Assembly (NCBI GenBank): GCA_963664305.2
Contig: CAXXLV010000001.1
Coordinates: 256,001-320,000 of the forward strand
Source of the DNA: an uncultured Aliarcobacter sp.
Lineage (GTDB): Bacteria > Campylobacterota > Campylobacteria > Campylobacterales > Arcobacteraceae
Length of the DNA stretch: 64,000 nt
Direction: 5' to 3'
Below the pieces are notes generated by a model. The model did not search any database. It had not been told where the DNA came from and saw only the letters and a program-made list of their open reading frames with translations. The position numbers and the translations under genes were made by a program. This document shows, one piece after another, positions 40,850 through 64,000 of the stretch. Numbering within the stretch: the first letter of the stretch is position 1; every line of letters starts with the position of its first letter.

Positions 40850-40879
40850 GCGATAAATTTGCGATTGAATTTCTATAAT
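40850..40879 (+). promoter_or_regulatory. Direct-repeat box GCGAT-N6-GCGAT plus consensus -10 (TATAAT) upstream of the porin gene
   Basis: GCGAT 40850-54 and 40861-65, 8-nt spacer, TATAAT 40874-79. Confidence 0.75.
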
Positions 40880-46417: not shown

Positions 46418-46431
46418 TTTATACCTTTTGA

Positions 46432-47253: not shown

Positions 47254-47271
47254 ATTTTCTCCTTAATAATT

Positions 47272-48276
47272 TTATAAATTGAACTCTTTTGCTAAGAGTT
47301 CATAAGATTTCATTCTATCTTCAAATGAGTAAGTTACATTTACAATCATAACTTCCTCTACACCATACTCTAAAGCTAATTTTTCTATTTTTTCTTTGCA
47401 CTCTTTTGGAGTTCCTAAAATCATAGAATCTAACGTTTCTTTATAATAAGCTTTATCTTCAAAACTTAATTCTTCATACAATTTTTCAACATCACTTGGG
47501 CTATGTAATCCATCACGAGTAGGATGTCTAAATGCCTGAACTTTCCAATATGTATGCGAACATGCTATCTCTTGCGCTTTTTCTTTTGAATCAGAACAAA
47601 TACAAGCAACAGCAATCATTGCTTTTGGTTTTTTAAAATTTTTAGATGCTTTAAAATTTTTTTTGTAACTATCTATAATTTGTATTGGTCTATCATGAGT
47701 TCCAATAAATAGTGCTAAACAAAAACCAGCACCTAATTTTCCAGCTAAAATACTACTTCCATCACTAGAACCAAGTAAATAAACAGGTGTAGAATTAACA
47801 TTTTTAGGAGATAGATTTACTCCATAAAAATAATCATTTTTAGGAACTTTATCATCCAAATAATTTATAAGATCATAGGCTTTTTTAGTATAATCTCCAC
47901 TATTTGAATTATGTAAGGCACGAGCAGCTAAAAAATTAGCGCCATTTGCTCTTCCAATTCCTAAATCAATTCTATTATTATGTAAAGCACTTAGTGTATT
48001 AAAAGTTTCAGCAACTTTAAATGCACTATAATGATTTAACATAACACCACCACTTCCAACTCTAATAGTTTTAGTTGCATCTGCAATTGTACTTACCATT
48101 ATTTCTGGACATGCACTTGCATATCCAGGAGTGTCATGATGTTCTGCACACCAATATCTGTAATAACCTAATTCTTCACATCTAGTTGCTAGTTTTATAG
48201 TGTCAAATAAGGCTTCTTTATCTTCTTTTCCATCATGTATTGGTGATTGATCAAGTACACTTAATTTTAAATTCAT
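47272..48276 (-). CDS. Luciferase-like (LLM class) flavin-dependent oxidoreductase
   Basis: LSVLDQSP, RYWCAEHH, IRVGSGGVML.HYS..KVAE.F, RIDLGIGRA. Confidence 0.9.
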   Translation of the reverse strand: MNLKLSVLDQSPIHDGKEDKEALFDTIKLATRCEELGYYRYWCAEHHDTPGYASACPEIMVSTIADATKTIRVGSGGVMLNHYSAFKVAETFNTLSALHNNRIDLGIGRANGANFLAARALHNSNSGDYTKKAYDLINYLDDKVPKNDYFYGVNLSPKNVNSTPVYLLGSSDGSSILAGKLGAGFCLALFIGTHDRPIQIIDSYKKNFKASKNFKKPKAMIAVACICSDSKEKAQEIACSHTYWKVQAFRHPTRDGLHSPSDVEKLYEELSFEDKAYYKETLDSMILGTPKECKEKIEKLALEYGVEEVMIVNVTYSFEDRMKSYELLAKEFNL

Positions 48277-48284
48277 AATAAATT

Positions 48285-48476
48285 TTATTTACCTAACTTT
48301 TTGGCACTTTTCCCACCAATACCAAAGTGTTGTTTAGGCATTTCATTTATAATTACCCTAACACTTTCAATTGGTGTATCAAGAGATTCAGCAATCGCAA
48401 TACTTACTTTCTCAATCAATGCCTCTTTTTTTTCGTCACTTCTACCTTCAATAATATTTATTGTTGCAATTGGCAC
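48285..48476 (-). CDS. dmpI: 4-oxalocrotonate tautomerase
   Basis: GTG start, catalytic Pro-1 (MPIA), [14 protein letters not shown]. Confidence 0.95.
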
Positions 48477-48485
48477 GAGTTTTCC

Positions 48486-49274
48486 TTATACAAATTTCAT
48501 TGATAAAGTTCCTAAATCTTGGAACTTAACAGTTACATTATCGCCTTTTTTTACACTCATTGCAGCTGTAATTGCACCTGAAAGGATATACGTTCCAGCT
48601 TTTAGGATTTCACCTCGTTCACTTAACATATTTGCTAACATTGCAATTGCAGTTGCAGGATGTCCTAAAACAGCAGCACCAGCTCCAAGTTGAACAACTT
48701 CTCCATTGATTTCCATTACAACACCTAGAGTTTTTAGGTCTAAGTCTTTAATATCTCTCATTCTTCCACCAGTTACATATCTTGAAGATGAAGAGTTATC
48801 AGCAATTACAGATTTTAAATCAAATTTAAAATCTTTATATCTTGAATCTATAATTTCAACAGCTGGCATAACAAAATCAGTGGCAGCTAATACATCACCA
48901 ATATGACAACCTGGACCTTGTAAATCATCTTTTAAAATGAAAGCTATTTCAGCTTCTACTTTTGGATGAATTAACTCATCAATTTTAATTTCAGCTCCAT
49001 CACCATATGCAAAATAATCAGCTAAATAACCATAACAAGGATTTGGAACACCCATTTGTTTCATTTTAGCTTGAGAAGTAAGACCCATTTTCATACCAAC
49101 AATTTTATGCCCTCTTGCTTCTTTTGCTTTTCGTGCTGTCCATTGAATATCATATGCATCTTCATATGTCATTTCTGGATAATCATCTGTAATTTTAGTA
49201 ATTTCATGTGCATTTAGCTCAGCATCTTCACAATGCTTTGCTAATTTTTCTATTGTTGCTTTATCTAATGCCAT
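48486..49274 (-). CDS. dmpH: 4-oxalocrotonate decarboxylase
   Basis: KMGLTSQAKMKQMGV, HPKVEAEIAF, FDLKSVIADNSSS. Confidence 0.93.
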   Translation of the reverse strand: MALDKATIEKLAKHCEDAELNAHEITKITDDYPEMTYEDAYDIQWTARKAKEARGHKIVGMKMGLTSQAKMKQMGVPNPCYGYLADYFAYGDGAEIKIDELIHPKVEAEIAFILKDDLQGPGCHIGDVLAATDFVMPAVEIIDSRYKDFKFDLKSVIADNSSSSRYVTGGRMRDIKDLDLKTLGVVMEINGEVVQLGAGAAVLGHPATAIAMLANMLSERGEILKAGTYILSGAITAAMSVKKGDNVTVKFQDLGTLSMKFV

Positions 49275-50302
49275 TATATTAATCCTCTCTCTCTTGCCAT
49301 ATCTAATGCTAAGTCTTCAATCATATCTTCTTGACCACCTACCATTCCTCTTCTTCCTAGTTCTAGTAAAAGTGTTCTTGCATCAATTCCATATTTTTCT
49401 TCTGCACGTCTTGCAAATAATAAAAATGATGAATAAACTCCAGCATATCCTAAAGTGATAGAATCCCTTGAAATTCTTGTAGGTTTTCCCATAATTGGTA
49501 ATGCAATATCTTCAGCAGCATCTTCAATTTTATGTAAATCAATTCCAGTTTCAACACCCATTCTATTTAATACTGCAACTAAAACTTCAGTTGCTGTATT
49601 TCCAGAACCTGCTCCAAATCCAGCAAGTGATGCATCAATTCTTGTTGCTCCTGCTTCGATAGCTGCAAGTGAGTTTGCTACACCCATTGACATATTATTA
49701 TGCCCATGGAAACCTAACTCAATATCATCACCAAACTCTTTTTTAAGAATTGCTATTCTTGCACTTACATCATCAGGAAGTAAATATCCAGCTGAATCCG
49801 TTGCATAAATAGTTTTTGCTCCATAAGAAACCATTTTTGCTGCTTCTTGAAGTAATTTTTCAGGAGTTACCATATGAGCCATCATTAAAAAACCAACAGT
49901 ATCTAATCCCATAGAAACCGCTGCTTTTATATGTTGAGCAGAACAATCTGCTTCTGTACAATGAGTTGCAACTCTAACAGTTGAAATTCCTTTTTTAACA
50001 GCTCTTTCTAAATCTTTTACAATTCCAATTCCAGGAAGTAAAAGAGCAGAAATTTTTGCATTTTTTACATTTGATACTGCACACTCAATCCACTCTTCAT
50101 CAGTATGTAAACCATATCCATAATTAAGTGAACTTCCACCTAAACCATCACCATGAGTTACTTCAATCATAGGAACACCAGCTTCATCCATAGCTTTTGA
50201 CATTGCAGCCATTTGGTCTAATGTAAATTGATGTCTAATAGAGTGCATTCCATCTCTTAAAGACATATCATGAATTGTTACTTTTTTACCTTTTAAATTC
50301 AT
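49274..50302 (-). CDS. dmpG: 4-hydroxy-2-oxovalerate aldolase
   Basis: [39 protein letters not shown]; start moved to ATG at 50302. Confidence 0.96.
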
Positions 50303-50303
50303 G

Positions 50304-51188
50304 TTATTCTCCTTTGATTTTTTCAGCCATTTTTTCTGCAATGTTTGTTGCAGCAGCTGTGATAATGTCTAAGTTACCTGCATATTTTGGTAAATAATCT
50401 CCTAATCCTTCAACTTCTAAATAAATAGAAACTTTTTTACCATCAAAAACTGGTCCATTTTTTAATTTATATCCAGGTACAAATTGTTGTACTTTTTTTA
50501 CCATTTCATGAACTGATTTAGTAATTGCTTCTTTGTTTGGTTCAGCAACTGTTTGACAATGAACAGTATCTCTCATCATAAGTGGTGGCTCTGCTGGATT
50601 TAAAATAATAATAGCTTTACCTTTTTTTACATTTCCAACTCTTTCTATTCCAAGTTTTGTTGTTTCTGTAAACTCATCAATGTTTGCACGAGTACCTGGA
50701 CCTGCTGATTTAGAAGCAACTGTTGCAATAATCTCTGCATAATCAACTGCTTGCACAGAAGAAACAGCTGCAACCATAGGAATAGTTGCCTGTCCACCAC
50801 AAGTTACCATGTTTACATTTTGTGTATTTTGTGCTAATAATTCATCAATATTTACTGAAGGTACACAAAATGGACCAATAGCTGCAGGCGTTAAATCAAT
50901 TACCATAACTCCAAGTTCAGCTAATTTCCTATTATTTTCACCATGAACATATGCAGATGTTGCATCAAAAGCAATTTTCACCCCATCTTCTTTGATAAAA
51001 GGAAGTAATCCGTCAACACCTTCATGTGTTGTTTTCATTCCAGCATCTTTTGCTTTTTTTAATCCATCTGAATCTGGGTCAATTCCAACCATCCATAGTG
51101 GATTTAAGATTTCACTTCTTTGAAGTTTATACATTAAATCTGTACCAATATTTCCAGATCCAATTAATGCGCAATTTATTTTCATCAT
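50304..51188 (-). CDS. dmpF: Acetaldehyde dehydrogenase (acylating)
   Basis: [39 protein letters not shown]. Confidence 0.96.
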
Positions 51189-51203
51189 TATTCCTTAAAA
51201 ATT

Positions 51204-51312
51204 GTCCCAATTTTGAAGGGACCTTTTCACTTAACGACTTCTTTTAACACAATGGCAAAGCCATTGTTAAAGAAGCAAACTCTAAAGAGAACAACGAGTT
51301 GTTCTTATCTTT
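51204..51312. repeat. Multi-hairpin intergenic element between dmpE and dmpF
   Basis: Three adjacent inverted repeats: GTCCC/GGGAC, ACAATGGC-AAA-GCCATTGT (extended by CTTCTTT/AAAGAAG), AGAACAAC-GA-GTTGTTCT. Confidence 0.6.
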
Positions 51313-52105
51313 ATACAAATCTACAAGAGGCAGAACCAATTCCACCAATGTTTATAGTCATATTATCACCTGGTTTAATTGTTACCATTGCACATAATGC
51401 ACCAGATAAAATAACCTCTCCAGCTTTTAAACCAACACCAAAAGAACCTAGTGTATTTGCAAGCCATGCTACAGCATTAACAGGACTTCCTAGTGCTGCT
51501 GCACCAGCTCCTGTGTGTAATAATTCTCCATTTCTTTCAAGTGTAATACCACAAGTTGTTAAATCAACATCTCTTGGGTCAACACCTTTTCCACCAAATA
51601 CGATATATCCACAAGAAGCATTATCTGCAACTGTATCTTGAATTTTTATTTTCCAATCTTTAATTCTTGAATCAACGATTTCAAAACATGGCATTACAAA
51701 TTTTGTAGCTCTTAACACATCAGCTGTTGTAACACCTGGTCCCATTAAATCTTCTTTTAAAACGAAAGCTATTTCACCTTCAGCTTTTGGTTGAATCATT
51801 CCTTTTGTTACATTGATTTCATCACCATCAGAATAAATCATATCAGATAATAGGTATCCAAAATCTGGCTGATGAACACCTAACATGTCCATAACAACCT
51901 TTGAAGTTACACCAATTTTTTTACCAATAATTCTTGATTTATCATCTTCCATTCTTCTTTTTAAAAAGTAATGTTGAATAGCATAAGCATCTTCAATTGT
52001 TGCATCAGCTTCTCTTGAAGAAATTGGTTCAATTGTATAATTACCTTTTAAAGCATCATATAGCTCATTTCCATATTTTTCTATTTTTTCATTTGTCATT
52101 GCCAT
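51311..52105 (-). CDS. dmpE: 2-oxopent-4-enoate hydratase
   Basis: GKKIGVTSK.V..MLGV.QPDFG, IQPKAEGEIAF, WKIKIQDTVADNASCG. Confidence 0.94.
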   Translation of the reverse strand: MAMTNEKIEKYGNELYDALKGNYTIEPISSREADATIEDAYAIQHYFLKRRMEDDKSRIIGKKIGVTSKVVMDMLGVHQPDFGYLLSDMIYSDGDEINVTKGMIQPKAEGEIAFVLKEDLMGPGVTTADVLRATKFVMPCFEIVDSRIKDWKIKIQDTVADNASCGYIVFGGKGVDPRDVDLTTCGITLERNGELLHTGAGAAALGSPVNAVAWLANTLGSFGVGLKAGEVILSGALCAMVTIKPGDNMTINIGGIGSASCRFV

Positions 52106-52115
52106 AATCAGCCCC

Positions 52116-53573
52116 TTACATTTTGATACAAATATTTTTTAATTCTGTATAGAATTCTAAAGAGTGATGACCACCTTCTCTTCCAATTCCAGAACCTTTC
52201 ATTCCACCAAATGGTGTTCTTAAATCTCTTAAGAACCATGAATTTACCCATACAATTCCTGAATCAATTTTTGAAGCAACTCTATGAGCTTTATCCAAGT
52301 CTTTTGTAAAAATTGTAGAAGCTAATCCATATTTCGTATCATTTGCCATTCTAATTGCTTCTTCTTCCGTATCAAATGGTTGAACATGACAACAAGGTCC
52401 AAATACTTCCTCTTTTACTACAGTTGCAGTTTCTGCTAAACCTGTCCAAATAGTTGGTTCTACCCAGAAACCATCTTTTAAATCACCTTCCATTTTAGGA
52501 GCACCACCACCTAAAACAACATTTGCACCCTCTTTTCTTGCAATTTCATAATATTCTAATACTTTATCTCTATGTGCAGCACTTACAACTGGTCCCATAT
52601 CAACTGACTCATCATGTTGAACACCTACTTTTAATTTTGAAGCAGATTCTTTTAATTTTGCTAAAAATTCATCAAAAATTGGTCTTTGAACATAAACTCT
52701 TTCTGTTCCTAAACAAACTTGACCTGAGTTAGCAAAACAAGATCTTGTAGTTTCATGAACAGCTTTTTCCATGTCACAATCAGCAAAAATAATAGCTGGG
52801 TTTTTTCCACCAAGTTCTAAAGATACATCTCTTACACCTTTTGAACATGCTTGCATAATCATTTCACCAGTTTTTGTTTCACCAGTAAATGTTATTGCAT
52901 CAATATCTGGATGAGAAGTAATTAAATTACCAGTAATTGAACCTTTTCCTTGAACAACATTATAAGCACCAGCTGGAACTCCAACTTTACTCATAACTTC
53001 ACCTAAAAGTGATGTTGTTGTAGGAGTAACTTGAGAAGGTTTAACAACAACTGTATTACCACAAGCCATTGCTGGACCTACTTTCCAAGTCATTAATAAT
53101 AAAGGTAAATTCCATGGAGAGATTACACCAATAACACCTTTTGGTTTTCTCATAGAATAATTAAATGCAGTTTTTCCATCTGGAGTGTCCATTCTATAAG
53201 CTTCATCTGCAACAGCCTTCATTGTGTCAGCAAATACTTTGAAGTTTGCAGCTCCTCTTGGAATATCAATATGTCTTGCGATTGAGTAAGGTTTTCCTGT
53301 ATCTAAACATTCTGCCTCTAAAAAATCATTAAATCGTCTATCAATCTCATTTGCAATTTCATACATCATAGCAATTCTGTCATTTAATTTCATTTGCCCC
53401 CATTCTCCTGTAAGTGCTGCTTTAGCAGCAGCAATTGCAGCGTTTACTTCAGGCTCTCTTCCAAGTGCTACTTTTGAAATTATTTCAGCAGTTGCAGGGT
53501 TATAATTATCAAAAAATTCTCCACATTGAGAATCCATAAATTGTCCATTAATATAGTGTTGTACTTTTTTCAT
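52116..53573 (-). CDS. dmpC: 2-hydroxymuconate semialdehyde dehydrogenase
   Basis: HIDIPRGAANF, PWNLPLLLMTWK, LELGGKN, GQVCLGTER, WVNSWFLRDLRT. Confidence 0.95.
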   Translation of the reverse strand: MKKVQHYINGQFMDSQCGEFFDNYNPATAEIISKVALGREPEVNAAIAAAKAALTGEWGQMKLNDRIAMMYEIANEIDRRFNDFLEAECLDTGKPYSIARHIDIPRGAANFKVFADTMKAVADEAYRMDTPDGKTAFNYSMRKPKGVIGVISPWNLPLLLMTWKVGPAMACGNTVVVKPSQVTPTTTSLLGEVMSKVGVPAGAYNVVQGKGSITGNLITSHPDIDAITFTGETKTGEMIMQACSKGVRDVSLELGGKNPAIIFADCDMEKAVHETTRSCFANSGQVCLGTERVYVQRPIFDEFLAKLKESASKLKVGVQHDESVDMGPVVSAAHRDKVLEYYEIARKEGANVVLGGGAPKMEGDLKDGFWVEPTIWTGLAETATVVKEEVFGPCCHVQPFDTEEEAIRMANDTKYGLASTIFTKDLDKAHRVASKIDSGIVWVNSWFLRDLRTPFGGMKGSGIGREGGHHSLEFYTELKNICIKM

Positions 53574-53998
53574 TATTTTAATCCTATCTTTTCAATTGCA
53601 TATTTTGCACATATAATATCTTCTTCTTCAGTTCCACCAGAAACACCAATTGCCCCAACTTTTACGTTTTCATCATCAAAAATTGGTAAACCACCACCAA
53701 AAGGAATTAATCTTTCTCTGTTTGAAAAACCTTGTTCCAAATGAGGCATTTGTTTAAAAATCTCTGTCCATTGTGCAGTTGGAAAACCAAAACTTGCACT
53801 CGTAAAAGCTTTGTTTTTTGCTATATCTATCGAATGGATAAATGAATTTTCCATTCTTAAAAAAGCCATTTCTAAACCTTTATTATCAACTACGCTCACA
53901 TTTATTGATATGTTTAATTCTTCAGCCTTTTTAACTGCAAAAAGACAAGCTTCCATAGAAGCCTGTCTTGATATAGATTTTTCTGTAATTATCTTCAT
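53573..53998 (-). CDS. GlcG/HbpS-like heme-binding protein (the NahX-type ORF of meta operons)
   Basis: VSVVD..G...FLRM, A.NKAFT, FGGGLP, GAIGVSGGTEEED. Confidence 0.88.
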   Translation of the reverse strand: MKIITEKSISRQASMEACLFAVKKAEELNISINVSVVDNKGLEMAFLRMENSFIHSIDIAKNKAFTSASFGFPTAQWTEIFKQMPHLEQGFSNRERLIPFGGGLPIFDDENVKVGAIGVSGGTEEEDIICAKYAIEKIGLK

Positions 53999-54000
53999 TC

Positions 54001-54948
54001 TTATTTATATGCCGATAATGTATACGCCGTTGTGAACGCACCATTTTCTTGACCTGTATGATAGAAAATCCCTCTCCATAATTCATCTTCAGTCCAAGTA
54101 ACAGTTGGCATATCTGGTTGCATTAAATATCCAAGTCCAGCAAATGTTTCAAGTCTATGTCCAGATGGGTCAAAGAAATAAATTGTTTCACCTCTTGTAA
54201 TTCCATGTCTTTGTGGAGTAACATCAATTTTTACATTATGCATTGCCATAACATCTGCTGCTCTTAAAATATCATTCCATCCATCTAAGAAAAATGCAAA
54301 GTGATGCATTCCAGTTTCAGGACCAGCAACAAATGCTAAATCATGAGGAGTTGAAGTTCTTGCCAACCAAGTTGCAGCTTGAAGTGAACCTTCTGGTCCT
54401 ACACAAACTTGTTCCGCTAAATTAAATTCTAAAACTTCTTGGAAGAATTTTGTTCCAGCCATAACTTTTTCTGGTCCTTCACACATTAATAAAATATGGT
54501 CTATCCAGTGTGCTTTGATACCTTTTCCATTAAATGGCCAAGGTCTTGGATTTGTATCTCCAACTTCTTTACCTACAAAAGTTTTTTGGGCATATAAATT
54601 AAATTCATGTCCACTTGGAGCAATAAATTTTAAAATTCTTCCACATTCAGCAACACTTCCAGCTGGTAAAATTTCAGTTGAAACACCATATGCTTCAATT
54701 TTTACTTTTAAATCATCTATATCAGAATCTTTTTCAACTTTATAAGCAACTCTGTTAAATGTAGCCTCTTCGCTTGGTCTTAAAACTAAGCTATATTTAT
54801 CCCATTCATCCCAACATTTTAAATATAATGTACCATCCGCATCTTCTCTAGTAACATCCATACCCATAATTTCTACATAATATTTTCTTGATTCGTTGAT
54901 ATCTAATACATTTAAATCAACATGTCCAATTCTCATAACTCCACTCAT
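54001..54948 (-). CDS. dmpB: Catechol 2,3-dioxygenase
   Basis: GVMRIGH, YLKCWDEWDKYS, WIDHILL, HHFAF, HGITRGETIYFFDPSGHRLETF. Confidence 0.96.
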   Translation of the reverse strand: MSGVMRIGHVDLNVLDINESRKYYVEIMGMDVTREDADGTLYLKCWDEWDKYSLVLRPSEEATFNRVAYKVEKDSDIDDLKVKIEAYGVSTEILPAGSVAECGRILKFIAPSGHEFNLYAQKTFVGKEVGDTNPRPWPFNGKGIKAHWIDHILLMCEGPEKVMAGTKFFQEVLEFNLAEQVCVGPEGSLQAATWLARTSTPHDLAFVAGPETGMHHFAFFLDGWNDILRAADVMAMHNVKIDVTPQRHGITRGETIYFFDPSGHRLETFAGLGYLMQPDMPTVTWTEDELWRGIFYHTGQENGAFTTAYTLSAYK

Positions 54949-54964
54949 TTTCTCTCCTTAGTTT

Positions 54965-55282
54965 TTAAGATCCAAATCTATACATTTGTTTACTTTTGTT
55001 TTTTGCTCTTGATATGAATTCTATTTCCATATCATCTCTTGGAAAAACTTTACAAGCTAACACAATATTGTCATTTTCTTCTTCTTCTGATATATGTTTT
55101 CGGTTCATTTTTTCTTTACTATATTCACCATGATAAACTTTTATTTTACATACACCACAAGCTCCATTATGACAACCACTTGGCACTAAATCTGAATGTA
55201 CATATAAGCCATCCATTAAGTTTTTATTCTCAAGGCATTGTTGACTTCTGTCTTTGTCTTTAACAAATACATTATGTTTCAA
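54965..55282 (-). CDS. dmpQ: XylT/DmpQ-type [2Fe-2S] ferredoxin (C23O reactivase)
   Basis: GCHNGACGVCK, MNRKHIS, LACKVFP; directly upstream of C23O. Confidence 0.9.
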   Translation of the reverse strand: MKHNVFVKDKDRSQQCLENKNLMDGLYVHSDLVPSGCHNGACGVCKIKVYHGEYSKEKMNRKHISEEEENDNIVLACKVFPRDDMEIEFISRAKNKSKQMYRFGS

Positions 55283-55334
55283 ATCTTATCCTTAGTAATA
55301 AATTTAAAAAGCTTTTGACTTTTTAACTATGGGA

Positions 55335-55366
55335 ACTTTACTTTAAATAATTCGCATAAAAATCGC
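55335..55366 (-). promoter_or_regulatory. Direct-repeat box GCGAT-N6-GCGAA plus possible -10 (TAAAGT) upstream of the meta operon
   Basis: Plus strand ATCGC 55362-66 and TTCGC 55351-55; ACTTTA 55335-40 (10-nt spacer). Confidence 0.65.
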
Positions 55367-55380
55367 AATTATCTCTTTTT

Positions 55381-56328
55381 TCAAATTTTTTTGTTTTTTT
55401 CTTCAAGAACTTCAATAAGTTCCTTAACAGCGTTAATTGATTCACTAAATTGTGACTGTTGTTCTTTAGTTAAATCCAGTTCAATTATCTTCTCAACACC
55501 ATCTTTGCCTAAAATTACAGGAATTCCTGCAACAACATTTTCATATCCATACTCACCATTTAACATCACAGAACATGGATAAATTTCTTTTTTATCATTT
55601 AATATTGCATCTATCATTACGGCTGTTGAATTAGCAGGTGCAAAGTAAGCAGAACCTGTTTTTAGTAAATTTACTATTTGTGCTCCACCATTTTTTGTTT
55701 GATTGATAATTTCATCTATATCCTCTTTAGATAAAACCTCATCCAAAAATTTATTTGATACTTTTGAGTAAGAAACTAAAGGAACCATTTCATTCCCATG
55801 TCCACCCATCACAGAAGCAGCTATCTCATTTTTTTTAGAATTTAATTTTTCATATATAAAATGGCTCATTCTTGCACTATCTAAAATTCCAGCCATTCCA
55901 AAAATTTTATTTCTTGGCCATTTTGAAACTTCAAGTGCTTTATAAACCATTGCATCTAAAGGATTTGATACAATGATAATTATTGCATTTGGGTTATATT
56001 TAATAACATCACTTATCAATGATTCAATAATCCCTGCATTTATATGTAATAAATCATCTCTACTCATTCCAGGTTTTCTAGCAATTCCAGCAGTAATAAC
56101 AACAACATCACAATCATAAAAATCTTCACTTTTAGATATTGCAAATATTTTTGCTTTATCATTTGTTGCAAAAGTAGCTTGTGAGATATCTAACATCATT
56201 GCAGTAGTTAAATCTTCACGAATATCTTTTAGTAATATTTCTGAACAAATATTTTTTAAAGCTAATGTATAAGCTAAAGTTGCACCAACATTCCCAACAC
56301 CAATTATTCCAACTCTTTTACTCTCCAC
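55381..56328 (-). CDS. mdh: Malate dehydrogenase (LDH-like)
   Basis: GVGNVG, TAGIARKPGMSRDDL, VSNPLD, LDSAR, GGHG, GSAYFAPA. Confidence 0.92.
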   Translation of the reverse strand: MESKRVGIIGVGNVGATLAYTLALKNICSEILLKDIREDLTTAMMLDISQATFATNDKAKIFAISKSEDFYDCDVVVITAGIARKPGMSRDDLLHINAGIIESLISDVIKYNPNAIIIIVSNPLDAMVYKALEVSKWPRNKIFGMAGILDSARMSHFIYEKLNSKKNEIAASVMGGHGNEMVPLVSYSKVSNKFLDEVLSKEDIDEIINQTKNGGAQIVNLLKTGSAYFAPANSTAVMIDAILNDKKEIYPCSVMLNGEYGYENVVAGIPVILGKDGVEKIIELDLTKEQQSQFSESINAVKELIEVLEEKNKKI

Positions 56329-56354
56329 ATTTCTCCTTTTTATTTTTTAGAAAT

Positions 56355-56384
56355 GTTATATAAATCCAATCGCTTTCTAATCGC
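56355..56384 (-). promoter_or_regulatory. Direct-repeat box GCGAT-N6-GCGAT plus -10 (TATAAC) upstream of mdh
   Basis: Plus strand ATCGC 56380-84 and 56369-73; GTTATA 56355-60 (8-nt spacer). Confidence 0.75.
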
Positions 56385-56397
56385 TTAATTTTTGTTA

Positions 56398-56435
56398 AAT
56401 TTCGATTTATGTTATACTTCAAATAAATCGAAATT
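56398..56435 (+). promoter_or_regulatory. 13-bp perfect inverted repeat enclosing an extended -10 (TGnTATACT) upstream of the histidine kinase
   Basis: AATTTCGATTTAT (56398-410) / ATAAATCGAAATT (56423-435); TATACT 56413-18. Confidence 0.65.
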
Positions 56436-56444
56436 AGAGTATAT

Positions 56445-57698
56445 ATGGCAAAAAAATTTTCACTTACTTTTATAATAATAGGAATAATTGGAGTAATTTC
56501 TCTGGATAAATTAATAGAGATATTTTCTAAAAACAATGAATTGTCTCAAGAAGGTCCATTTTCAATTGCAATCTTTTTTATGATTACAACAGGAATTATT
56601 TTATACTTCATAATACATCATATGGAAAAAGTAATTGAAAAAATAGATAAATCATATAATGAATTAAAAAGAAAAGATAAAAGTAGAATTGCACCTTATG
56701 AATTTTCCCTTGATAATTCTGTTGATTCTATTCACTGGTTAAATTTAGATGGAAAATTTTTATATGTAAATGAATCAACATGTAGAATGGAAGGTTATAC
56801 TAAAGAAGAATTTAAAGATATGTATTTGGAAGATATTGACCCATCATTTGATAGAGAAGGTGCTAAAAAATGTATGCAAGATATAAAAAATACTGAAAAT
56901 TGGAGATTAGAATCTACTCATAAAAGAAAAGATGGAAGTATATATCCTGTAGAAGTATCTGGACATGCATTTATTTTTGAAGGACAAGAATATATTTGTG
57001 CTTTTGCAAGAGATATCACTCAAAGATTAGAAGATAAAAACAATATAACAAAAATAAATCAAGAACTACAAAAATCTTTAGCAGAAAAAGAGATGTTATT
57101 AAAAGAGATTCATCATAGAGTAAAAAATAATATGGAAATCATTTCTTCTTTATTAAATATGCAAGCAAGAAGAAGTGATGATATAAATTTCAAAAATGCA
57201 ATGAAACAAAGTAGAAGTAGAATTCTTACAATGGCTCTTGTTCATGAATTTTTATATTTAGGTGAAAATTTAGCCTACATAAATATTCAAGAATATATAA
57301 AAAAATTAGTTCAAGATATAAAAGAATTGTACATTTCTCAAAATACAAATTTAGAAGTTGATTTACATATTGATAATTTAATATTTTCAGCAAATAGATG
57401 TATTCAAGTAGGAATGATTTTACACGAATTATGCGTAAATTCTTTAAAATATGCTTTTGAAGAAAATAGAAAAAATCTTTTATGTATTCATATAAATAAA
57501 ATCAATGATGATATTAATATAAAAATTAGAGACAATGGAGATAAAGAAATTGATATAACTAATTTACAAAAAAGGGACTCTATTGGATTACAATTAATTT
57601 ATTCAATAGTTGATTTTCAATTGCATGGAAAATTAGAATTTAAAATAAATAGAGGATTGGAATGTAATATCACATTCCCAGAAAAGGAAGAGATATGA
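56445..57698 (+). CDS. Sensor histidine kinase: 2 TM, PAS, HisKA_2, HATPase
   Basis: PAS (DGKFLYVN...GYTKEEF...KRKDGSIYPVEV...ARDIT), LLKEIHHRVKNN H-box, ELCVNSLKYAF N-box. Confidence 0.9.
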   Translation: MAKKFSLTFIIIGIIGVISLDKLIEIFSKNNELSQEGPFSIAIFFMITTGIILYFIIHHMEKVIEKIDKSYNELKRKDKSRIAPYEFSLDNSVDSIHWLNLDGKFLYVNESTCRMEGYTKEEFKDMYLEDIDPSFDREGAKKCMQDIKNTENWRLESTHKRKDGSIYPVEVSGHAFIFEGQEYICAFARDITQRLEDKNNITKINQELQKSLAEKEMLLKEIHHRVKNNMEIISSLLNMQARRSDDINFKNAMKQSRSRILTMALVHEFLYLGENLAYINIQEYIKKLVQDIKELYISQNTNLEVDLHIDNLIFSANRCIQVGMILHELCVNSLKYAFEENRKNLLCIHINKINDDINIKIRDNGDKEIDITNLQKRDSIGLQLIYSIVDFQLHGKLEFKINRGLECNITFPEKEEI

Positions 57699-58453
57699 TA
57701 AAAACAAAAATACTTATTGTAGAAGATGAACCAATAATTGCTTTAAATTTACAAGAAACTCTAGAAGAATTAGGTTATGAAACTTTTGGTATTACTAATA
57801 ATAGATGTAGAACTTTAGAATTACTAAAAAGTGAAGAAATACCTGATTTAATATTAATGGATATTTATTTACAAGGCCCTACAACTGGAATACAATTAGC
57901 TAAAGAATTAAAAAATTCATTACCAAATGTTCCTATAATCTTTTTAACAGCAAATTCTGAATATGCAACAATCAAAGAAGCTTCAGAAACTTTTGCTTAT
58001 GGATATTTAGTAAAACCTTATAAAAAAAATACTCTGTTTGCGACTATTGAATTAGCATTAAAAAAAGCAAAAGAAGAACTTACTCAGAAATTAGATTTTG
58101 AGTCATTAAAAAATATAAACAAAACTTTAGAGCATAAATTAACACTGAATCAAGAATCAAAGTCAAGAACAATTAAACTCAAATATGGTTATTTATTTGA
58201 TAAAGAAAAAGAAATTTTGTATTATGGAGATGAAGTAGTAAAACTAACAAATAAAGAAACAGATATCATCAAAGCTTTATGTAAAACTCCTGGTCAAAAG
58301 ATTTCTCAAGAACAATTAGAATATGCAATTTGGCAAAATGAACCAGCTGGTTATGCTGCTTTTAGGTCTGTATTATTCAGACTTAGAAATAAAATACATA
58401 AAGATTTAATAACTAATCAAAATAACACAGGATATAGAATAGAACTTTTATAA
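57695..58453 (+). CDS. Response regulator, receiver + OmpR/PhoB-type winged helix
   Basis: IVEDE, LMDI, FLTA, YLVKP; C-terminal LTNKE...EQLEYAIW...RSVLFRLRNKI...GYRI; overlaps kinase stop (ATGA). Confidence 0.9.
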   Translation: MIKTKILIVEDEPIIALNLQETLEELGYETFGITNNRCRTLELLKSEEIPDLILMDIYLQGPTTGIQLAKELKNSLPNVPIIFLTANSEYATIKEASETFAYGYLVKPYKKNTLFATIELALKKAKEELTQKLDFESLKNINKTLEHKLTLNQESKSRTIKLKYGYLFDKEKEILYYGDEVVKLTNKETDIIKALCKTPGQKISQEQLEYAIWQNEPAGYAAFRSVLFRLRNKIHKDLITNQNNTGYRIELL

Positions 58454-59283: not shown

Positions 59284-59316
59284 AAAAAAAGATACAACTT
59301 TATAGTTGTATCTTTT
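59284..59316 (-). terminator. Intrinsic terminator after dmpP
   Basis: AAAAGATACAACT-N4-AGTTGTATCTTTT perfect stem followed by a T-run on the minus strand. Confidence 0.8.
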
Positions 59317-60373
59317 AGATAGATTTAAAAAGTGGACTTTTTATTTTATCGCTGTGCAGGTCAGCTTTTGAGAAGAATTTTTCAGTATGTATATCTTTTT
59401 CAAATAATCTTCCTTGCATAAGTGCAGTAATACAAGCTTCACTCATCATTGGAGGTCCGCATAAATATGCTTTATTTCCTGCAAATTGATTATTATAAAG
59501 TTTTTTAGCTACATCATTTGTAAATCCAATTTCACCAGCCCATGATGGATTTTCATTATTTGATAAAACTGGAACATACCTAAAATTATCATATTTCTTT
59601 TCTAAATCTCTGAACATATCAGCATAATAAAGTTCTTCTTCATTTCTTGCACCATGAAACAAAGTAATTGGTTGAGTACAACCATTTTCTAACTCATCTA
59701 AAATCATAGATTTTGGACTTGAAAGTCCCGAACCACCTGCAAAAAATATCATTGGTTTTTGTGCTGATTTTTTTACAAAAAATCTTCCAAAAGGACCAGT
59801 GATTTTTCTTCTATCTCCAACTTTTACATTTTGATGAATCCAAGGTGTTGCTTCACCATCAGGAATAAGTCCAATATTTAATTCAATTACTTTTCCAGTA
59901 CTTGGTTGATTCGCTAGTGAAAATGCTCTTGGTTCATCAAATCCTGGAACATGATAATTTATATATTGACCAGCTTGAAAATCTAACTCTTCATCAAGTT
60001 CAATCCAAAGTCCTAAGATTCTTGGAGTTAACATCTCTCTTTTGATAACTGTTCCCCAAACATCTTTAACTTTTATACTTCTAGCATCAACATCCACATC
60101 AATATCAGCTTCAATAACAACATCATTAATTGCTGTTGCTGTACAAGCCAAACAAAAACCATCTTCTCTTTCACTCTCCATCAAAGCAAAATATGAAGCA
60201 TCACCTAAATCAACCTCTCCTTCTAAAACCTCAACTTTACAAGTTCCGCAAAGTCCGTGATTACAAGCATGAGGAAGATAAACCCCTTGTCGTAGAGCTG
60301 CATCAAGAAGGGTTTGCCCTTCTTGAACTTCTACTATATCACCTGTTGGTTCTATTTCTAATTTACAAGCCAA
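59315..60373 (-). CDS. dmpP: Phenol hydroxylase reductase P5
   Basis: CNHGLCGTC [2Fe-2S], FQAGQY, RAFSLAN, GGSGLSSPKSM, YLCGPP. Confidence 0.95.
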   Translation of the reverse strand: MACKLEIEPTGDIVEVQEGQTLLDAALRQGVYLPHACNHGLCGTCKVEVLEGEVDLGDASYFALMESEREDGFCLACTATAINDVVIEADIDVDVDARSIKVKDVWGTVIKREMLTPRILGLWIELDEELDFQAGQYINYHVPGFDEPRAFSLANQPSTGKVIELNIGLIPDGEATPWIHQNVKVGDRRKITGPFGRFFVKKSAQKPMIFFAGGSGLSSPKSMILDELENGCTQPITLFHGARNEEELYYADMFRDLEKKYDNFRYVPVLSNNENPSWAGEIGFTNDVAKKLYNNQFAGNKAYLCGPPMMSEACITALMQGRLFEKDIHTEKFFSKADLHSDKIKSPLFKSI

Positions 60374-60374
60374 T

Positions 60375-60734
60375 TTATGCTCCTACTTTACCTATCAAAT
60401 CTGGTGTTTTAAAAGTGATAAATGATTTATGTCCAACACCATTTTCTTTTAAACTTTTTGAAAAATCAGGTGTTATAACTTTTCCATCAACTTCCCAAAT
60501 AACTTCTGTTTTATCAAAATCTAAATCTTTAAAATCTAGTTCAATTTTATATGTTACTGGAATTAAATCAGAAATTATCGCACCAAAAGGCATTTCAGGA
60601 GGTAATGGAAATGCTCTTGGAGAGCTAACTACTCTATGTCCATACCAATATAGATACACTAATTGATTTCCATGAAATTTATCTACACTATCTTTCATTA
60701 TGATTGGATATTCTCCAATTGATTGAATTGCCAT
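60375..60734 (-). CDS. dmpO: Phenol hydroxylase gamma subunit P4
   Basis: FHGNQLVYLYW..H, PPEMPFG, PDFSKSLKENGVGHKS. Confidence 0.93.
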   Translation of the reverse strand: MAIQSIGEYPIIMKDSVDKFHGNQLVYLYWYGHRVVSSPRAFPLPPEMPFGAIISDLIPVTYKIELDFKDLDFDKTEVIWEVDGKVITPDFSKSLKENGVGHKSFITFKTPDLIGKVGA

Positions 60735-60745
60735 TTTTTCTCCTT

Positions 60746-62260
60746 TTATTTATTTCTTAATTTGTTCCACATAGCTTCATCAGGAGAACCTATATAATCC
60801 ATATTATCTACACCATGTTCTATTTTGTACCATTTTAAAACTTCTGGAATAGTAGCTCCACCACAGTTTCCTTGGAATATTTGATGTGGAGGTAACCAAG
60901 CTTGAACATATTTTTCAGGCTGTGCATCAAATATATCTTTACATCCATCAGAACAAGTATGGAAAATTTCTCCATTATATTCAGATGTTTTATGTGTATA
61001 AACATGTGGATTTCCACCTTCGATATCTGTAAATCCTAATGGAATTTGACAAGTTTGACAAATCAAAGGTAAAGTTTCAGAATAATATCTTTCCCCTTTT
61101 TCTTGTAAAGCTATATATCTTTCAAACATTGGTCTATAATATTTATCAAAAGTATCTGGATATTTTTGACTTAACCAATTCATTTTTTCTTCGTCTGGCA
61201 TCCAAATATGAATATTTGCAGCATTTGTATGATTATAGAAAATATTCCATACTTGATGAGATAAATGCCCTTTTTCAGCAATAATTGTATTTACTAATTT
61301 TTCAGGAATTTTAATTCCATATTTTTCTAAATCTTTATATAAGGCCATACAGTTTTGTTCGATATATAATTCAACTGCTTCTGCCCAAGATGTTGGAGAG
61401 TTAGGTAGCATATAATCCATCATCATAGCTACAAGACCTAACATTCTGTAACCTCTCCATAACCATTTATCCATCCATTTTTGAACAATTGGAACATTAT
61501 CTGCATCTTGTTCTAACATGAATTTAATAGCTGATAATCCTAAAGTCATATGTCTTGATTCATCACTTTGTGCAGAAAAACCAAATGTAACTGTTGCCAT
61601 ATCTCCATTATAAGCAGCTCCACTCATAAATGGAACAAATAATAAACTTGTTAATACAAATTCAAAAGAGAATGAAATAGCTGTTAAATATTCAAAAGGT
61701 CCTGCTGTACTTGCATCATCTCCAAATGATTTTGGAACTGATAAATACCAAACTCTATCATGCATTGTTCTAAAATTATGAAAACCATTAAAATATTTAT
61801 TATAATGACTCATTGTATGTACTTGAGTTTGGAAATGTCTTAACTCATCAATAGCTTGCATTTGGCATGCAATTGAAGCACCCTCACCTTTAAAAGCACG
61901 TGCTGCGTGAGAAAAACCTTGAACAACTTTATATTCAAGTGGTGTTACACCTGTTAAAAATAGTTTTAGTGCATTTACATATCTTGCATCTGAAATATTT
62001 TTTTGTGCATTGTTTTGAGCAAAAGCATCAATAATTGAATAAAGTTTTTTATCTTTTTCAGCTTGTAATTTCCAATAAGAATCCATTGTCATTCTAAATG
62101 GATCTTCCCATGCTTCCCAATCATGAATTTTCAATCCTTCCATTTTTAAAAAAGGAAAAACATCTTCTTCTTTTTGGTAAGTTGGATCCCAACCAAGTCT
62201 AGTCATATATTTATATGCATCTTTTTTATTTAATCTTTTTTTTCTAGGTTCTACACTCAT
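60746..62260 (-). CDS. dmpN: Phenol hydroxylase alpha (diiron) subunit P3
   Basis: WEDPFR, two ExxH motifs (DELRH, DESRH), HDRVWYLSVPKSF, YHS-like CSDGC. Confidence 0.97.
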   Translation of the reverse strand: MSVEPRKKRLNKKDAYKYMTRLGWDPTYQKEEDVFPFLKMEGLKIHDWEAWEDPFRMTMDSYWKLQAEKDKKLYSIIDAFAQNNAQKNISDARYVNALKLFLTGVTPLEYKVVQGFSHAARAFKGEGASIACQMQAIDELRHFQTQVHTMSHYNKYFNGFHNFRTMHDRVWYLSVPKSFGDDASTAGPFEYLTAISFSFEFVLTSLLFVPFMSGAAYNGDMATVTFGFSAQSDESRHMTLGLSAIKFMLEQDADNVPIVQKWMDKWLWRGYRMLGLVAMMMDYMLPNSPTSWAEAVELYIEQNCMALYKDLEKYGIKIPEKLVNTIIAEKGHLSHQVWNIFYNHTNAANIHIWMPDEEKMNWLSQKYPDTFDKYYRPMFERYIALQEKGERYYSETLPLICQTCQIPLGFTDIEGGNPHVYTHKTSEYNGEIFHTCSDGCKDIFDAQPEKYVQAWLPPHQIFQGNCGGATIPEVLKWYKIEHGVDNMDYIGSPDEAMWNKLRNK

Positions 62261-62281
62261 AATATCTCCCTTATTTTTGTA

Positions 62282-62557
62282 TTAGTTATTCCAATAAACG
62301 ATGAATTCATCATCTGTTTCTTCTACTTGTCCACCTAAAGAAATAAGTACTAATTGTAATTCTTCAGGATCCCAATCTCTTCCTAAAGCTTCTGATACTG
62401 TAGAAGCTTTTACAGTAATTTTTTCTGGTCTCTCAATTTGAATCATTGCTGGTTTATTAGTAATTATTACACCTTCATTATCTTCTTTGATTGCTTCTGC
62501 TATTGTTCTTCCATCTTCTGTAGATTGAAGACATAATAATGCTATACTTGATGACAT
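62282..62557 (-). CDS. dmpM: Phenol hydroxylase effector/coupling protein P2 (MmoB/DmpM)
   Basis: I.EAI..DN, PAMI.I, LGRDWD..ELQ..LISLGGQVEETDD. Confidence 0.93.
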   Translation of the reverse strand: MSSSIALLCLQSTEDGRTIAEAIKEDNEGVIITNKPAMIQIERPEKITVKASTVSEALGRDWDPEELQLVLISLGGQVEETDDEFIVYWNN

Positions 62558-62581
62558 ACGTTTCCCTTTTATTATTAATTT

Positions 62582-63574
62582 TTATAAATTTATTTCACAG
62601 TTTTTTAATCTAACTATTAACTCTGTTTTAACATTAGATATAAGTTCTTTAGGATTGTTTGAAAATGAAGCTAAAGGTTCCATCGCATTTTCCATAATCT
62701 CTATGTCTTCTTTTACCCAACTAGTTAATAAATCTCTATTTTCAGTTGATTCTTTTGCCATAACTTTTATAACACTATCTAACCATTTAACTGTTTCTTC
62801 ATACCATGAAACGATAAATTCATTTAACATAGAAATAGTCATTTCATCATTTTGCGCTAACTCTTTTGAGAATTCATTAATCATTAAAGGAATTACAAAA
62901 CCATCAAAAACAACATTTTGTTTAACAAATAATCTAATTGGATCTTTTTCAACAAAAGAATCTTCAACTGCTTTTCTTAAACCTTGCCAATTAGGACAAT
63001 TTAACCAAGCATCTTTTCCAGCTTCTAATTTTGAAACATCATTATCAGAAAGAAGTAGAATTATTTTTGTTATGTGTTGAGCCATTCCAAGTCTATCTTC
63101 AGCTTGAAATAAACAAGCACTCATCATAGCCGTCCCATAAACTCTATCTACAATACAAAGATTATTCATATTTGCACCATACTCATAATGTCTTAATGGA
63201 GTTAAAAAATCATATACCTTTTGTAAATTATCTTTTTTTATAAAATTAACTAAACCTCTTTTTTCAACAAATTCAAAACTTTGTTCATTTGCAGCATTTT
63301 GAGAAGCTCTTGTTGATACATAAGACATATAATGAAATTTTCTTGGATCCAATAAGTCATACCAATCATTCATTTTGATTTTTGTTCTATTTTTATCATA
63401 TATTTCAAATTCAGGTTCCCATTGTGGCCTATAATGAAAATTCTCAGTTGGTTGTGCATCATACATAGCTTCTTCATATCTTGAAGCTGGTCTATCTTCA
63501 CCTAATCTTTGTGCAACATGACCAAAAGTATGTCTTATTGGTTCTATTTCAACACTAGCTATATTTAATTCCAT
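62582..63574 (-). CDS. dmpL: Phenol hydroxylase beta subunit P1
   Basis: P.RHTF.HVA.R.G..PASRYEE..YD.Q...NFHYRP.W.P; PLRHYEYGANMNN; WQGLR. Confidence 0.95.
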   Translation of the reverse strand: MELNIASVEIEPIRHTFGHVAQRLGEDRPASRYEEAMYDAQPTENFHYRPQWEPEFEIYDKNRTKIKMNDWYDLLDPRKFHYMSYVSTRASQNAANEQSFEFVEKRGLVNFIKKDNLQKVYDFLTPLRHYEYGANMNNLCIVDRVYGTAMMSACLFQAEDRLGMAQHITKIILLLSDNDVSKLEAGKDAWLNCPNWQGLRKAVEDSFVEKDPIRLFVKQNVVFDGFVIPLMINEFSKELAQNDEMTISMLNEFIVSWYEETVKWLDSVIKVMAKESTENRDLLTSWVKEDIEIMENAMEPLASFSNNPKELISNVKTELIVRLKNCEINL

Positions 63575-63588
63575 ATTTTCTCCTTAGT

Positions 63589-63822
63589 TTAATTTAACCC
63601 ATATTTCCAATTTTCATTGTCAATTAATAATTCATCTTCTTGTTCTTTTGTAAAAAACGATACTCTATTATTTTGACAAAATTCAATGAAAGCTTTGTAT
63701 GGTAAAAGTAATTCAACATTCATTACAGCTTCACCTACTGCAAAATTAAATTCAACAAATCCATTATCTTTTATATTTATGATTTGTACAAATTTTTTTT
63801 CATTTGGCATAAGTTCATACAT
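63589..63822 (-). CDS. dmpK: Phenol hydroxylase assembly protein P0
   Basis: FVEFNFAVG...VELLLP..AF.EFC..NRV...WKYG. Confidence 0.9.
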   Translation of the reverse strand: MYELMPNEKKFVQIINIKDNGFVEFNFAVGEAVMNVELLLPYKAFIEFCQNNRVSFFTKEQEDELLIDNENWKYGLN

Positions 63823-63870
63823 AAAAAACTCCTAATTAAATTACTCTTTTAGTTTCAAGAACAAGTGAAT

Positions 63871-63900
63871 ACTATGTAAATTAAATCGCAAATTATTCGC
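63871..63900 (-). promoter_or_regulatory. Direct-repeat box GCGAA-N6-GCGAT plus -10 (CATAGT) upstream of dmpK
   Basis: Plus strand TTCGC 63896-900 and ATCGC 63885-89; ACTATG 63871-76 (8-nt spacer). Confidence 0.7.
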
Positions 63901-63957
63901 AAAAAAAAACAAAAAAAATAAAATTGGATAAAATACATACAAATAAAAGGATAGAAT

Positions 63958-64000
63958 ATGAGTTCAATGAAAAGGCGCATTTTTGATAATAAAAATATTC
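63958..64000 (+). CDS. Start of a divergently transcribed gene (MSSMKRRIFDNKNI...), truncated by the window end
   Basis: AAAAGGA RBS upstream of ATG at 63958; open to the end of the window. Confidence 0.5.
   Translation, partial: MSSMKRRIFDNKNI

Follow-up and report, generated by a model that had tools for sequence, protein, structure and literature searches.

A dmp-type phenol-catabolic cluster in an uncultured Aliarcobacter: probable control by PAS/HisKA_2 kinase and OmpR-type regulator pairs through a pho-box-like direct repeat

The locus and its two kinase/regulator pairs

We analysed a stretch of 64,000 nucleotides from an uncultured Aliarcobacter (the window, G000:C1:256001-320000, where G000 is the genome under study, 2,780,884 bp). 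It carries a dmp-type phenol-catabolic cluster and, within it, a two-component pair that an earlier note on this DNA had proposed as the regulator of phenol catabolism in place of a sigma-54-dependent DmpR/XylR activator. The dmpKLMNOP genes for a multicomponent phenol hydroxylase are followed by a TauE-family gene. A second group consists of a Mdh-like gene and a meta-cleavage set: ferredoxin, catechol 2,3-dioxygenase (C23O), an HbpS-like protein, aldehyde dehydrogenase, hydratase/decarboxylase, acetaldehyde dehydrogenase, aldolase, LLM oxidoreductase and hydrolase. The kinase HK1 and the response regulator RR1, whose open reading frames overlap by 4 nt, lie between the two groups (Table 1), and Pfam matches bear out the embedded position that the note had described.

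HK1 matches HisKA_2 (PF07568; 90.4 bits, cut-off 22.3) and PAS_9 (49.1 bits), with the PAS domain at residues 86-195. By hydropathy, peaks that mark two membrane helices are centred near residues 15-18 and 48, and beyond residue 80 there are no others. An AlphaFold2 model built with 30 homologues (mean pLDDT 84) begins with two helices (2-30 and 38-90), after which come a PAS fold, a long hairpin for the DHp domain and a catalytic domain of alpha/beta type. The architecture first read from the sequence (two membrane helices, a cytoplasmic PAS domain and a HisKA_2 core) thus stands. The H-box histidine is kept, with H223, H224, R225, V226, K227, N228 and N229 invariant across 30-33 kinase homologues; N332, D363-N364-G365 and G381 of the catalytic domain are also invariant in kinase homologues, and the model aligns to the kinase domain of EL346 (4r39). 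The top PDB folds for the model are PAS/LOV histidine kinases: 4gcz, EL346 (4r3a/4r39) and Brucella LOV-HK (6ph4/5epv). A protein-cluster search with the kinase returned generic HisKA_2/PAS clusters only and gave no lead to ligand or taxonomy.

RR1 consists of a receiver domain (Response_reg, 80.9 bits), a helical linker of ~40 aa and a winged helix (Trans_reg_C, 37.5 bits), both matches being over cut-off and the latter confirming the winged-helix output expected. The regulator residues D11, D56 and K107, features of the acidic pocket and phospho-aspartate receiver, are invariant. Neither HK1 nor RR1 has an XylR_N/V4R domain or a sigma-54-interaction AAA+ domain in Pfam.

A second pair, HK2/RR2, diverges from dmpK and continues beyond the window. 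HK2 is 61% identical to HK1 and RR2 71% identical to RR1, and G000 contains these two close copies of the kinase and of the regulator and no more. The gene starting at 63958 had been named as a possible different regulator acting on the repeat described below; it is instead HK2, a paralogue of the flagged kinase, and it heads the pair that is conserved in relatives.

The direct repeat and its promoter geometry

The two spacers from which the kinase genes diverge both hold AATCGC-N5-AWTCGC, with the 11-bp repeats at 63884-63900 and 56368-56384. Direct repeats of 10-11 bp period are the kind of site to which OmpR/PhoB regulators bind. We called sites of this kind by sequence pattern and use "operator" for a predicted binding site. 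The core pattern TCGC-N7-TCGC occurs six times on both strands of the whole genome, and all six sites fall within a 27-kb cluster (C1:296850-324004), are intergenic and have the same orientation towards the downstream gene. With one base less between the half-sites the genome yields one match, with one base more none, and the reversed pattern gives none. The direct repeat to which the earlier note had drawn attention is therefore real and, in its two spacers, far beyond chance.

The genes behind the six sites are dmpK, the ferredoxin/C23O operon, the Mdh-like gene, a putative porin gene and, outside the window, a chemoreceptor gene and a short-chain dehydrogenase-leuB set. Read along the downstream gene, all six sites have the form GCGAWTnnnnnGCGAWTnnnnn, 4 nt, TAnnnT. 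Between the proximal hexamer and the -10 box lie 9 bp, and the two repeats span roughly -38 to -17; the operator thus fills the -35 region. In 65 aligned sites from 21 genomes, positions outside the search pattern are near-invariant at fixed distance (T21 58/65, T22 63/65, T27 58/65, A28 64/65, T32 65/65), which independently supports the view that the sites are promoters of fixed geometry. As at the pho box, such a layout belongs to class-II promoters that depend on an activator.

A promoter-like match for HK2, TTCGCA-17-TAAAAT at 63896-63924 on the plus strand, has its -35-like hexamer over the distal operator repeat, an overlap that would allow autoregulation. Contigs from RNA-type libraries in Logan (wastewater, compost) covered 0.06-0.16 of sampled words at 90-99% likeness; such contigs show no transcript starts, strand or level, and we drew nothing on transcription or promoters from them.

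Table 1. Genes and predicted operators of the phenol-catabolic locus. Positions are those of the window unless another coordinate system is named.
Feature	Position	Strand	Basis or remark
HK1, PAS/HisKA_2 kinase, 417 aa	56445..57698	+	Pfam, hydropathy, AlphaFold2 model, PDB fold matches, kinase tree
RR1, OmpR/PhoB-type response regulator, 252 aa	57695..58453	+	Pfam; 71% identity to RR2
HK2 (start)	63958..64000, continues to G000:C1:321259 (= L010 958-2259)	+	433 aa, HK1 architecture
RR2, 252 aa	L010 2256-3014		directly after HK2
Operator upstream of dmpK	63879..63900	-	GCGAATaatttGCGATTtaatt, 4 nt, then -10 TAGTAT
Operator upstream of Mdh-like gene, divergent from HK1	56363..56384	-	GCGATTagaaaGCGATTggatt, 4 nt, then TAACAT
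Operator upstream of ferredoxin/C23O meta operon	55345..55366	-	GCGATTtttatGCGAATtattt, 4 nt, then TAAAGT
Operator upstream of putative porin gene	40850..40871	+	GCGATAaatttGCGATTgaatt
dmpKLMNOP, multicomponent phenol hydroxylase, predicted target operon	59315..63822	-	Pfam
TauE-family gene after dmp genes	58461-59267	-	Pfam
Mdh-like gene and meta-cleavage pathway, predicted target operons	46432..56328	-	Pfam, NCBIfam
Mdh-like gene	55381-56328	-	malate-dehydrogenase-subfamily paralogue with own predicted operator
Putative Opr-type porin gene	40944-42137	+	weak match, NCBIfam 48.5 bits vs cut-off 150

Among the genes behind the predicted operators, the Mdh-like gene passes the subfamily cut-off (388.8 bits, cut-off 283) and falls short of the equivalog one (340 bits, cut-off 351.85), and a homologue of the porin gene with the same site is present in a relative (L048). 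The chemoreceptor gene (4HB_MCP_1 sensor; L010 3027-4910, minus strand) and the short-chain dehydrogenase gene followed by leuB (4952-5004; the whole corresponding to G000:C1:322027-324004) diverge from a spacer with two inverted operator copies, one facing each gene, an arrangement that suggests co-regulation of chemotaxis with phenol catabolism.

The G+C content is 0.30-0.335 over the catabolic genes (46000-56000) versus 0.244 over the HK1/RR1 pair (56001-58000); the remaining window is mostly at 0.23-0.29, with one 2-kb bin at 0.35. This contrast is compatible with acquired enzymes joined to native-like regulators, or with plain coding constraint. A LysR-type regulator gene (38755-39582, minus strand), by an MFS transporter and a glyoxalase-fold protein and ~1 kb upstream of a prephenate dehydratase gene, is not kept with the dmp cluster in the loci examined.

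Distribution in relatives and the question of sigma-54

Co-occurrence of the pair with dmp clusters, proposed in the earlier note as a check, proved complete in the family. In a set of 184 genomes of family f1, DmpN was found in 36, and a close kinase homologue (at least 55% identity, E <= 1e-150) was found in the same 36 and in 0 of the 148 others. Three further genomes have a kinase match at E <= 1e-40, in each case a paralogue at 37-39% identity only. In 34 of the 36 the kinase gene lies within ~3 kb of dmpN on the same contig, and 13 of the 36 have a second linked kinase copy.

We then compared 20 loci of 20 kb from 20 species. HK2/RR2 is adjacent and divergent to dmpK in all 20, and also in 13 of 15 further genomes; in one of the 20 (L038) the HK2-type kinase frame is broken by a stop codon. 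The genome concerned (G048) has in-frame stops in dmpN (TAA), the HK2-type kinase (TAA) and rpoN (TAG), which could be gene decay or assembly error. HK1/RR1 was found in eight of the 20 loci, next to the Mdh-like gene in seven of those eight. Taken as a whole, the comparative genomics strongly favours the non-sigma-54 control through the repeat that the earlier note had proposed, and shifts its centre: the flagged pair is a derived accessory copy, and the universal pair is HK2/RR2.

The operator follows the same pattern. GCGA-N7-GCGA stands upstream of dmpK in all 20 loci, in the 15 further genomes and in G000 (36/36), and at the meta operon in 17 of 17 loci whose stretch takes in that operon's start. 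It precedes the Mdh-like gene in seven of the eight loci carrying that gene, the exception also being without HK1. None of the 59 sites in 388 kb falls inside an annotated gene, the annotation being limited to homologues of genes in this cluster. In two genomes of one genus (G064 and G065) the kinase/regulator pair is on a contig other than that of dmpK, in G065 behind ABC/HlyD genes, and the operator is still upstream of dmpK, as a trans-acting regulator would predict. No regulator gene was found in the 4 kb upstream of dmpK in G065 (the same stretch in G064 is without annotation). The kinase/regulator pair was the only regulator common to all loci examined, with no rival.

Two further gene sets in relatives carry operator-like sites. 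An operator-preceded operon for a ~430-aa substrate-binding protein with a signal sequence and two Liv-type ABC ATPases (L036 12757-15550, minus; L038 4168-7004, plus; L050 6540-9317, plus; L042 14820-17564, minus) comes after RR1 in L036, L038 and L050 and is missing from the G000 cluster. At about 1000-8131 of L032 (genome G005), a second, distant diiron monooxygenase set with 19-26% identity to DmpL/DmpN lies between the TauE gene and a ferredoxin gene and has its own upstream GCGATT-N5-GCGATA site.

Outside the family, no full-length kinase homologue above 44% identity was found in 401 genomes sampled from the phylum. A profile search of genome contigs with the kinase alignment gave, among the matches listed, only generic PAS-HisKA_2 kinases, which come from many phyla and reach no more than 41% identity; near relatives seem to be missing from those matches, so this search is silent on co-occurrence beyond the phylum.

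With regard to sigma-54, no TGGC-N7-TTGC element was found in the 40-64 kb portion of the window or in the 135-nt dmpK spacer (63823-63957), which was also read directly, in agreement with the earlier observation for that spacer. Relaxed TGG-N9-TGCW matches in 40-64 kb all lie within coding regions. The genome search for XylR_N and V4R domains that had been proposed gave no match in G000. Because the XylR_N control was found in no genome, the XylR_N negative carries little weight, and we relied instead on V4R, whose control was found in three genomes, and on Sigma54_activat. The single strong Sigma54_activat protein in G000 is a GAF-AAA+-HTH_8 protein ~410 kb away, and no enhancer-binding-protein ATPase domain was found in 24 related loci, where a positive control was detected.

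Loss of rpoN does not account for this arrangement in G000, which has the gene. Across the family, rpoN (PF04552) was matched in 67 of the 184 family genomes and in 13 of the 36 that carry dmp genes, and was not found in the other 23. Six of these 23 are assemblies of 1-2 contigs at 99-100% completeness, and the dmp operon there therefore cannot be sigma-54-dependent. Eleven of the 13 rpoN-positive dmp genomes are also among the 13 with two linked kinase copies, an overlap that probably comes from shared ancestry.

Alternative readings and known systems

Phenol catabolism, here and in 35 related genomes, is very probably controlled by a PAS/HisKA_2 kinase and an OmpR-type regulator acting through the pho-box-like operator, and not by a DmpR-type activator. 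In the mechanism that we propose, the phenol-catabolic island would be under a lineage-specific two-component family. The kinase, with its two membrane helices, cytoplasmic PAS domain and HisKA_2 core, would bind a phenolic ligand at the PAS domain and phosphorylate the ~252-aa OmpR/PhoB-type regulator. A dimer of the phosphorylated regulator would bind the two 11-bp direct repeats, GCGAWT-N5-GCGAWT. These occupy the -35 region of promoters with no -35 consensus, and the bound regulator would activate housekeeping-sigma polymerase in the class-II manner, as at the pho box. In G000, six such promoters would drive dmpKLMNOP-tauE, the meta operon and the genes for the Mdh-like protein, the putative porin, the chemoreceptor and the short-chain dehydrogenase. 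HK2/RR2 would be the ancestral and universal pair and HK1/RR1 a later duplicate; since RR1 has the same DNA-binding surface as RR2, both pairs would converge on one operator. We regard this model as a whole (the two-component family, the GCGAWT repeats, class-II activation and both pairs on one operator) as likely.

How the two pairs share the work is one part of this model that allows another reading. In a maximum-likelihood tree of 33 kinases, the 29 dmp-associated kinases form one clade (100/99), and the nine of HK1 type group together in one clade (100/99) that lies within the HK2-type kinases; HK1/RR1 is thus a one-time duplicate of the ancestral dmp regulator. The kinase types differ consistently at six positions (97, 103, 112 and 159 in the PAS domain, one in the DHp and one in the catalytic domain). 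PAS identity is 0.68-0.75 within each type and 0.58 between types, and the inter-helix loop is the least conserved kinase region (0.30 identity within the HK2 type). In the regulators, the winged-helix consensus is essentially the same in both types, and at the 90% level the types can be told apart by only two residues, 13 and 60, both in the receiver domain. From these comparisons we infer that RR1 and RR2 read the same operator, that the sensors have diverged in their PAS domains and that insulation between the pairs is thin; the two pairs probably respond to different phenolic signals through those PAS domains.

It could instead be that HK2/RR2 alone controls the phenol hydroxylase and meta genes and that HK1/RR1 is an accessory module for the Mdh-like gene (in relatives, for Liv-type ABC uptake) with little role in dmp expression. 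The restriction of the derived HK1 clade to a second linked copy in 13 of the 36 dmp genomes, its travelling with the Mdh-like gene, the operator-bearing ABC operon after HK1/RR1 in three loci and the persistence of the operator at the meta operon in genomes without HK1 would all fit such a division. The near-identity of the two winged helices does not fit it, nor do the operators of the Mdh-like gene, which are no different from those of dmpK. With two regulator and six kinase residues separating the types, cross-regulation between the pairs would be hard to avoid, and we consider a strict division of this kind somewhat unlikely.

A second question is what the kinases sense, and here paralogues outside the dmp cluster are informative. 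Full-length kinase paralogues of 37-46% identity occur in the family and in two other families of the same order, and in 8/8 loci they adjoin a p-cresol-methylhydroxylase-like flavoprotein and cytochrome c pair; among solved structures, the flavoprotein is closest to p-cresol methylhydroxylase (9h40, E 1.6e-169), with 1dii and vanillyl-alcohol oxidases also matched. All eight loci have a direct repeat of 11-bp period beside the kinase, of the GCGATT type in L051, L052 and L155 and of the GAGAKT type in L053, L054 and L152-L154. In the GAGA group, the regulators have a different winged helix, with changes such as those at the positions matching W213 and S225 in RR1. We had considered a clean co-variation of regulator and operator (AGYAAxRS with GCGATT, VGEGALRG with GAGAKT), which is weakened by L052 and L155, where VGEGALRS goes with GCGATT. 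The pattern is consistent with co-evolution and falls short of proof. Phenol and cresol enzymes share a phenolic substrate and not an oxygen chemistry, and this is our main argument that the kinase family would sense phenolics rather than oxygen or redox state.

That the kinases instead report a general cue (oxygen, redox state or membrane perturbation), with substrate specificity coming from elsewhere, seems improbable to us. In favour of such a cue, PAS domains are often redox or oxygen sensors, O2 is required by oxygenase pathways, and solvent stress could be sensed through the membrane helices; no pocket for a ligand was identified in the kinase, whose best structural matches are light/redox-type PAS kinases. 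However, the kinase PAS region has no invariant histidine. The flavin-binding motif of LOV domains is GxNCRFLQ, with an adduct-forming cysteine; in the HK1 translation, read directly, the stretch after GYTKEEF is KDMYLEDIDPS, with no NCRFLQ. Moreover, the paralogues accompany both an O2-dependent diiron hydroxylase and an O2-independent flavocytochrome methylhydroxylase, with the phenolic substrate as the common feature, and no other candidate specificity factor is conserved in the loci. A different strain, Arcobacter sp. CAB, oxidises catechol by the meta pathway, whose genes are induced on catechol versus acetate: by reverse-transcription PCR they are expressed on catechol and little or not at all on acetate, and the part of the report available to us names no regulator (PMC3656443).

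Binding of the repeat by another, unlinked regulator, or repression by the pairs, is very improbable: the promoter-like HK2 match overlapping the distal repeat could mean that occupancy represses HK2 (in a scan whose matches occur at chance frequency), but the repeat goes together with the kinase/regulator pair in 36 genomes and in the cresol-associated loci, and it sits in place of the -35 region with constant spacing to the -10 box, which is activator geometry.

Several points weigh against the control that we propose. (i) The 36 DmpN-positive genomes represent nine genera, and kinship makes them non-independent samples. (ii) The search pattern was built from G000 and then applied to relatives, and the genome-wide background comes from G000 only. 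(iii) A generic sigma-70 scan called none of the predicted promoters, and its matches occur at chance frequency (4 found vs 3.6 expected); missed calls are expected if the promoters are without a -35 box, which is not positive support. (iv) For HATPase_c, HK1 has no Pfam match at E <= 0.001 and HK2 scores 25.3 bits against a cut-off of 26.4. (v) The fold search with the HK1 model returned generic PAS/LOV kinases only and no ligand-bound analogue, which bears on the phenolic ligand. (vi) The regulator/operator co-variation follows just one split in the phylogeny and has exceptions, the L052 and L155 regulators combining a VGEGALR helix with GCGATT repeats.

More tentatively, phenol, cresol or catechol may be bound directly by the PAS domain of these small HisKA_2 kinases; that domain would then be a receptor of a new class, with no kinship to the V4R pocket found in DmpR, MopR and PcrS. 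Phenolic regulons (hydroxylase, meta pathway, cresol methylhydroxylase, porin, ABC uptake and chemotaxis) might have been built on it by Campylobacterota in which sigma-54 was lost or was never used for catabolism, and two sensors in one cluster could feed two phenolic signals into one shared operator. The system would thus offer a possible new ligand-sensing PAS domain and a compact, sigma-54-independent phenolic biosensor module of kinase, regulator and 22-bp operator. It would also account for the regulation of aromatic catabolism in family members without rpoN, in a family whose bacteria are common in wastewater, and opens the question of how two nearly uninsulated paralogous pairs share one operator. 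As an in-silico regulon it is unusually clean, combining a genome-unique operator, fixed geometry, full co-occurrence with DmpN in 184 genomes and paralogues on a second phenolic pathway.

The regulation of multicomponent phenol hydroxylases is the textbook case of sigma-54/XylR-family control. To our knowledge, two-component control of a dmp-type cluster has not been reported, and a full-text literature search, with subscription journals outside its coverage, found no description of the present system. The system resembles DmpR, XylR, MopR and PoxR in the predicted substrate-responsive activation of a dmp-type hydroxylase and meta pathway and in its divergent regulator gene. Those regulators, however, are one-component NtrC-family proteins with an XylR_N/V4R sensor and an AAA+ domain acting at -24/-12 promoters, none of which we found here.

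TodS/TodT and StyS/StyR likewise switch on a catabolic operon by a two-component relay, with the aromatic effector presumably bound by a cytoplasmic PAS domain. TodS and StyS are double-sensor hybrids of nearly 1,000 aa with HisKA, two PAS and two kinase modules and an internal receiver, and their regulators are of the NarL/FixJ type; the kinase here, in contrast, is 417-433 aa long and membrane-anchored, with one PAS domain, one HisKA_2 kinase core and an OmpR-type partner. The HWE/HisKA_2 kinase core is shared with EL346, LovK and Brucella LOV-HK, which feed general stress pathways through non-DNA-binding regulators. These are soluble blue-light sensors, whereas the kinase here is anchored in the membrane, is without the LOV motif and has a DNA-binding OmpR-type partner. 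In the pho box of PhoR/PhoB, two 11-bp direct repeats replace the -35 region ~10 bp from the -10 box and are bound by a head-to-tail winged-helix dimer; the present system differs in its half-site (GCGAWT), its kinase class and predicted signal and its ~40-aa linker, which is longer than that of PhoB.

A functional parallel is PcrSR of Aromatoleum aromaticum EbN1, a two-component system for a phenolic substrate inside a catabolic cluster, which the cresol-associated paralogues in particular recall. According to the part of PMC10715001 available to us, phenolic sensing in Aromatoleum runs through the V4R-containing, sigma-54-dependent PheR and EtpR and the two-component PcrSR; the last also depends on sigma-54, its sensor contains V4R, and cmh has a sigma-54 consensus promoter upstream. 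Unlike PcrSR, the system described here pairs its PAS/HisKA_2 kinase with a regulator of the OmpR type, at promoters whose -10 box is of the sigma-70 type. Control of aromatic catabolism by two-component systems is known as such, and what we judge to be new is the architecture of sensor and regulator, the operator and the association with a dmp-type hydroxylase.

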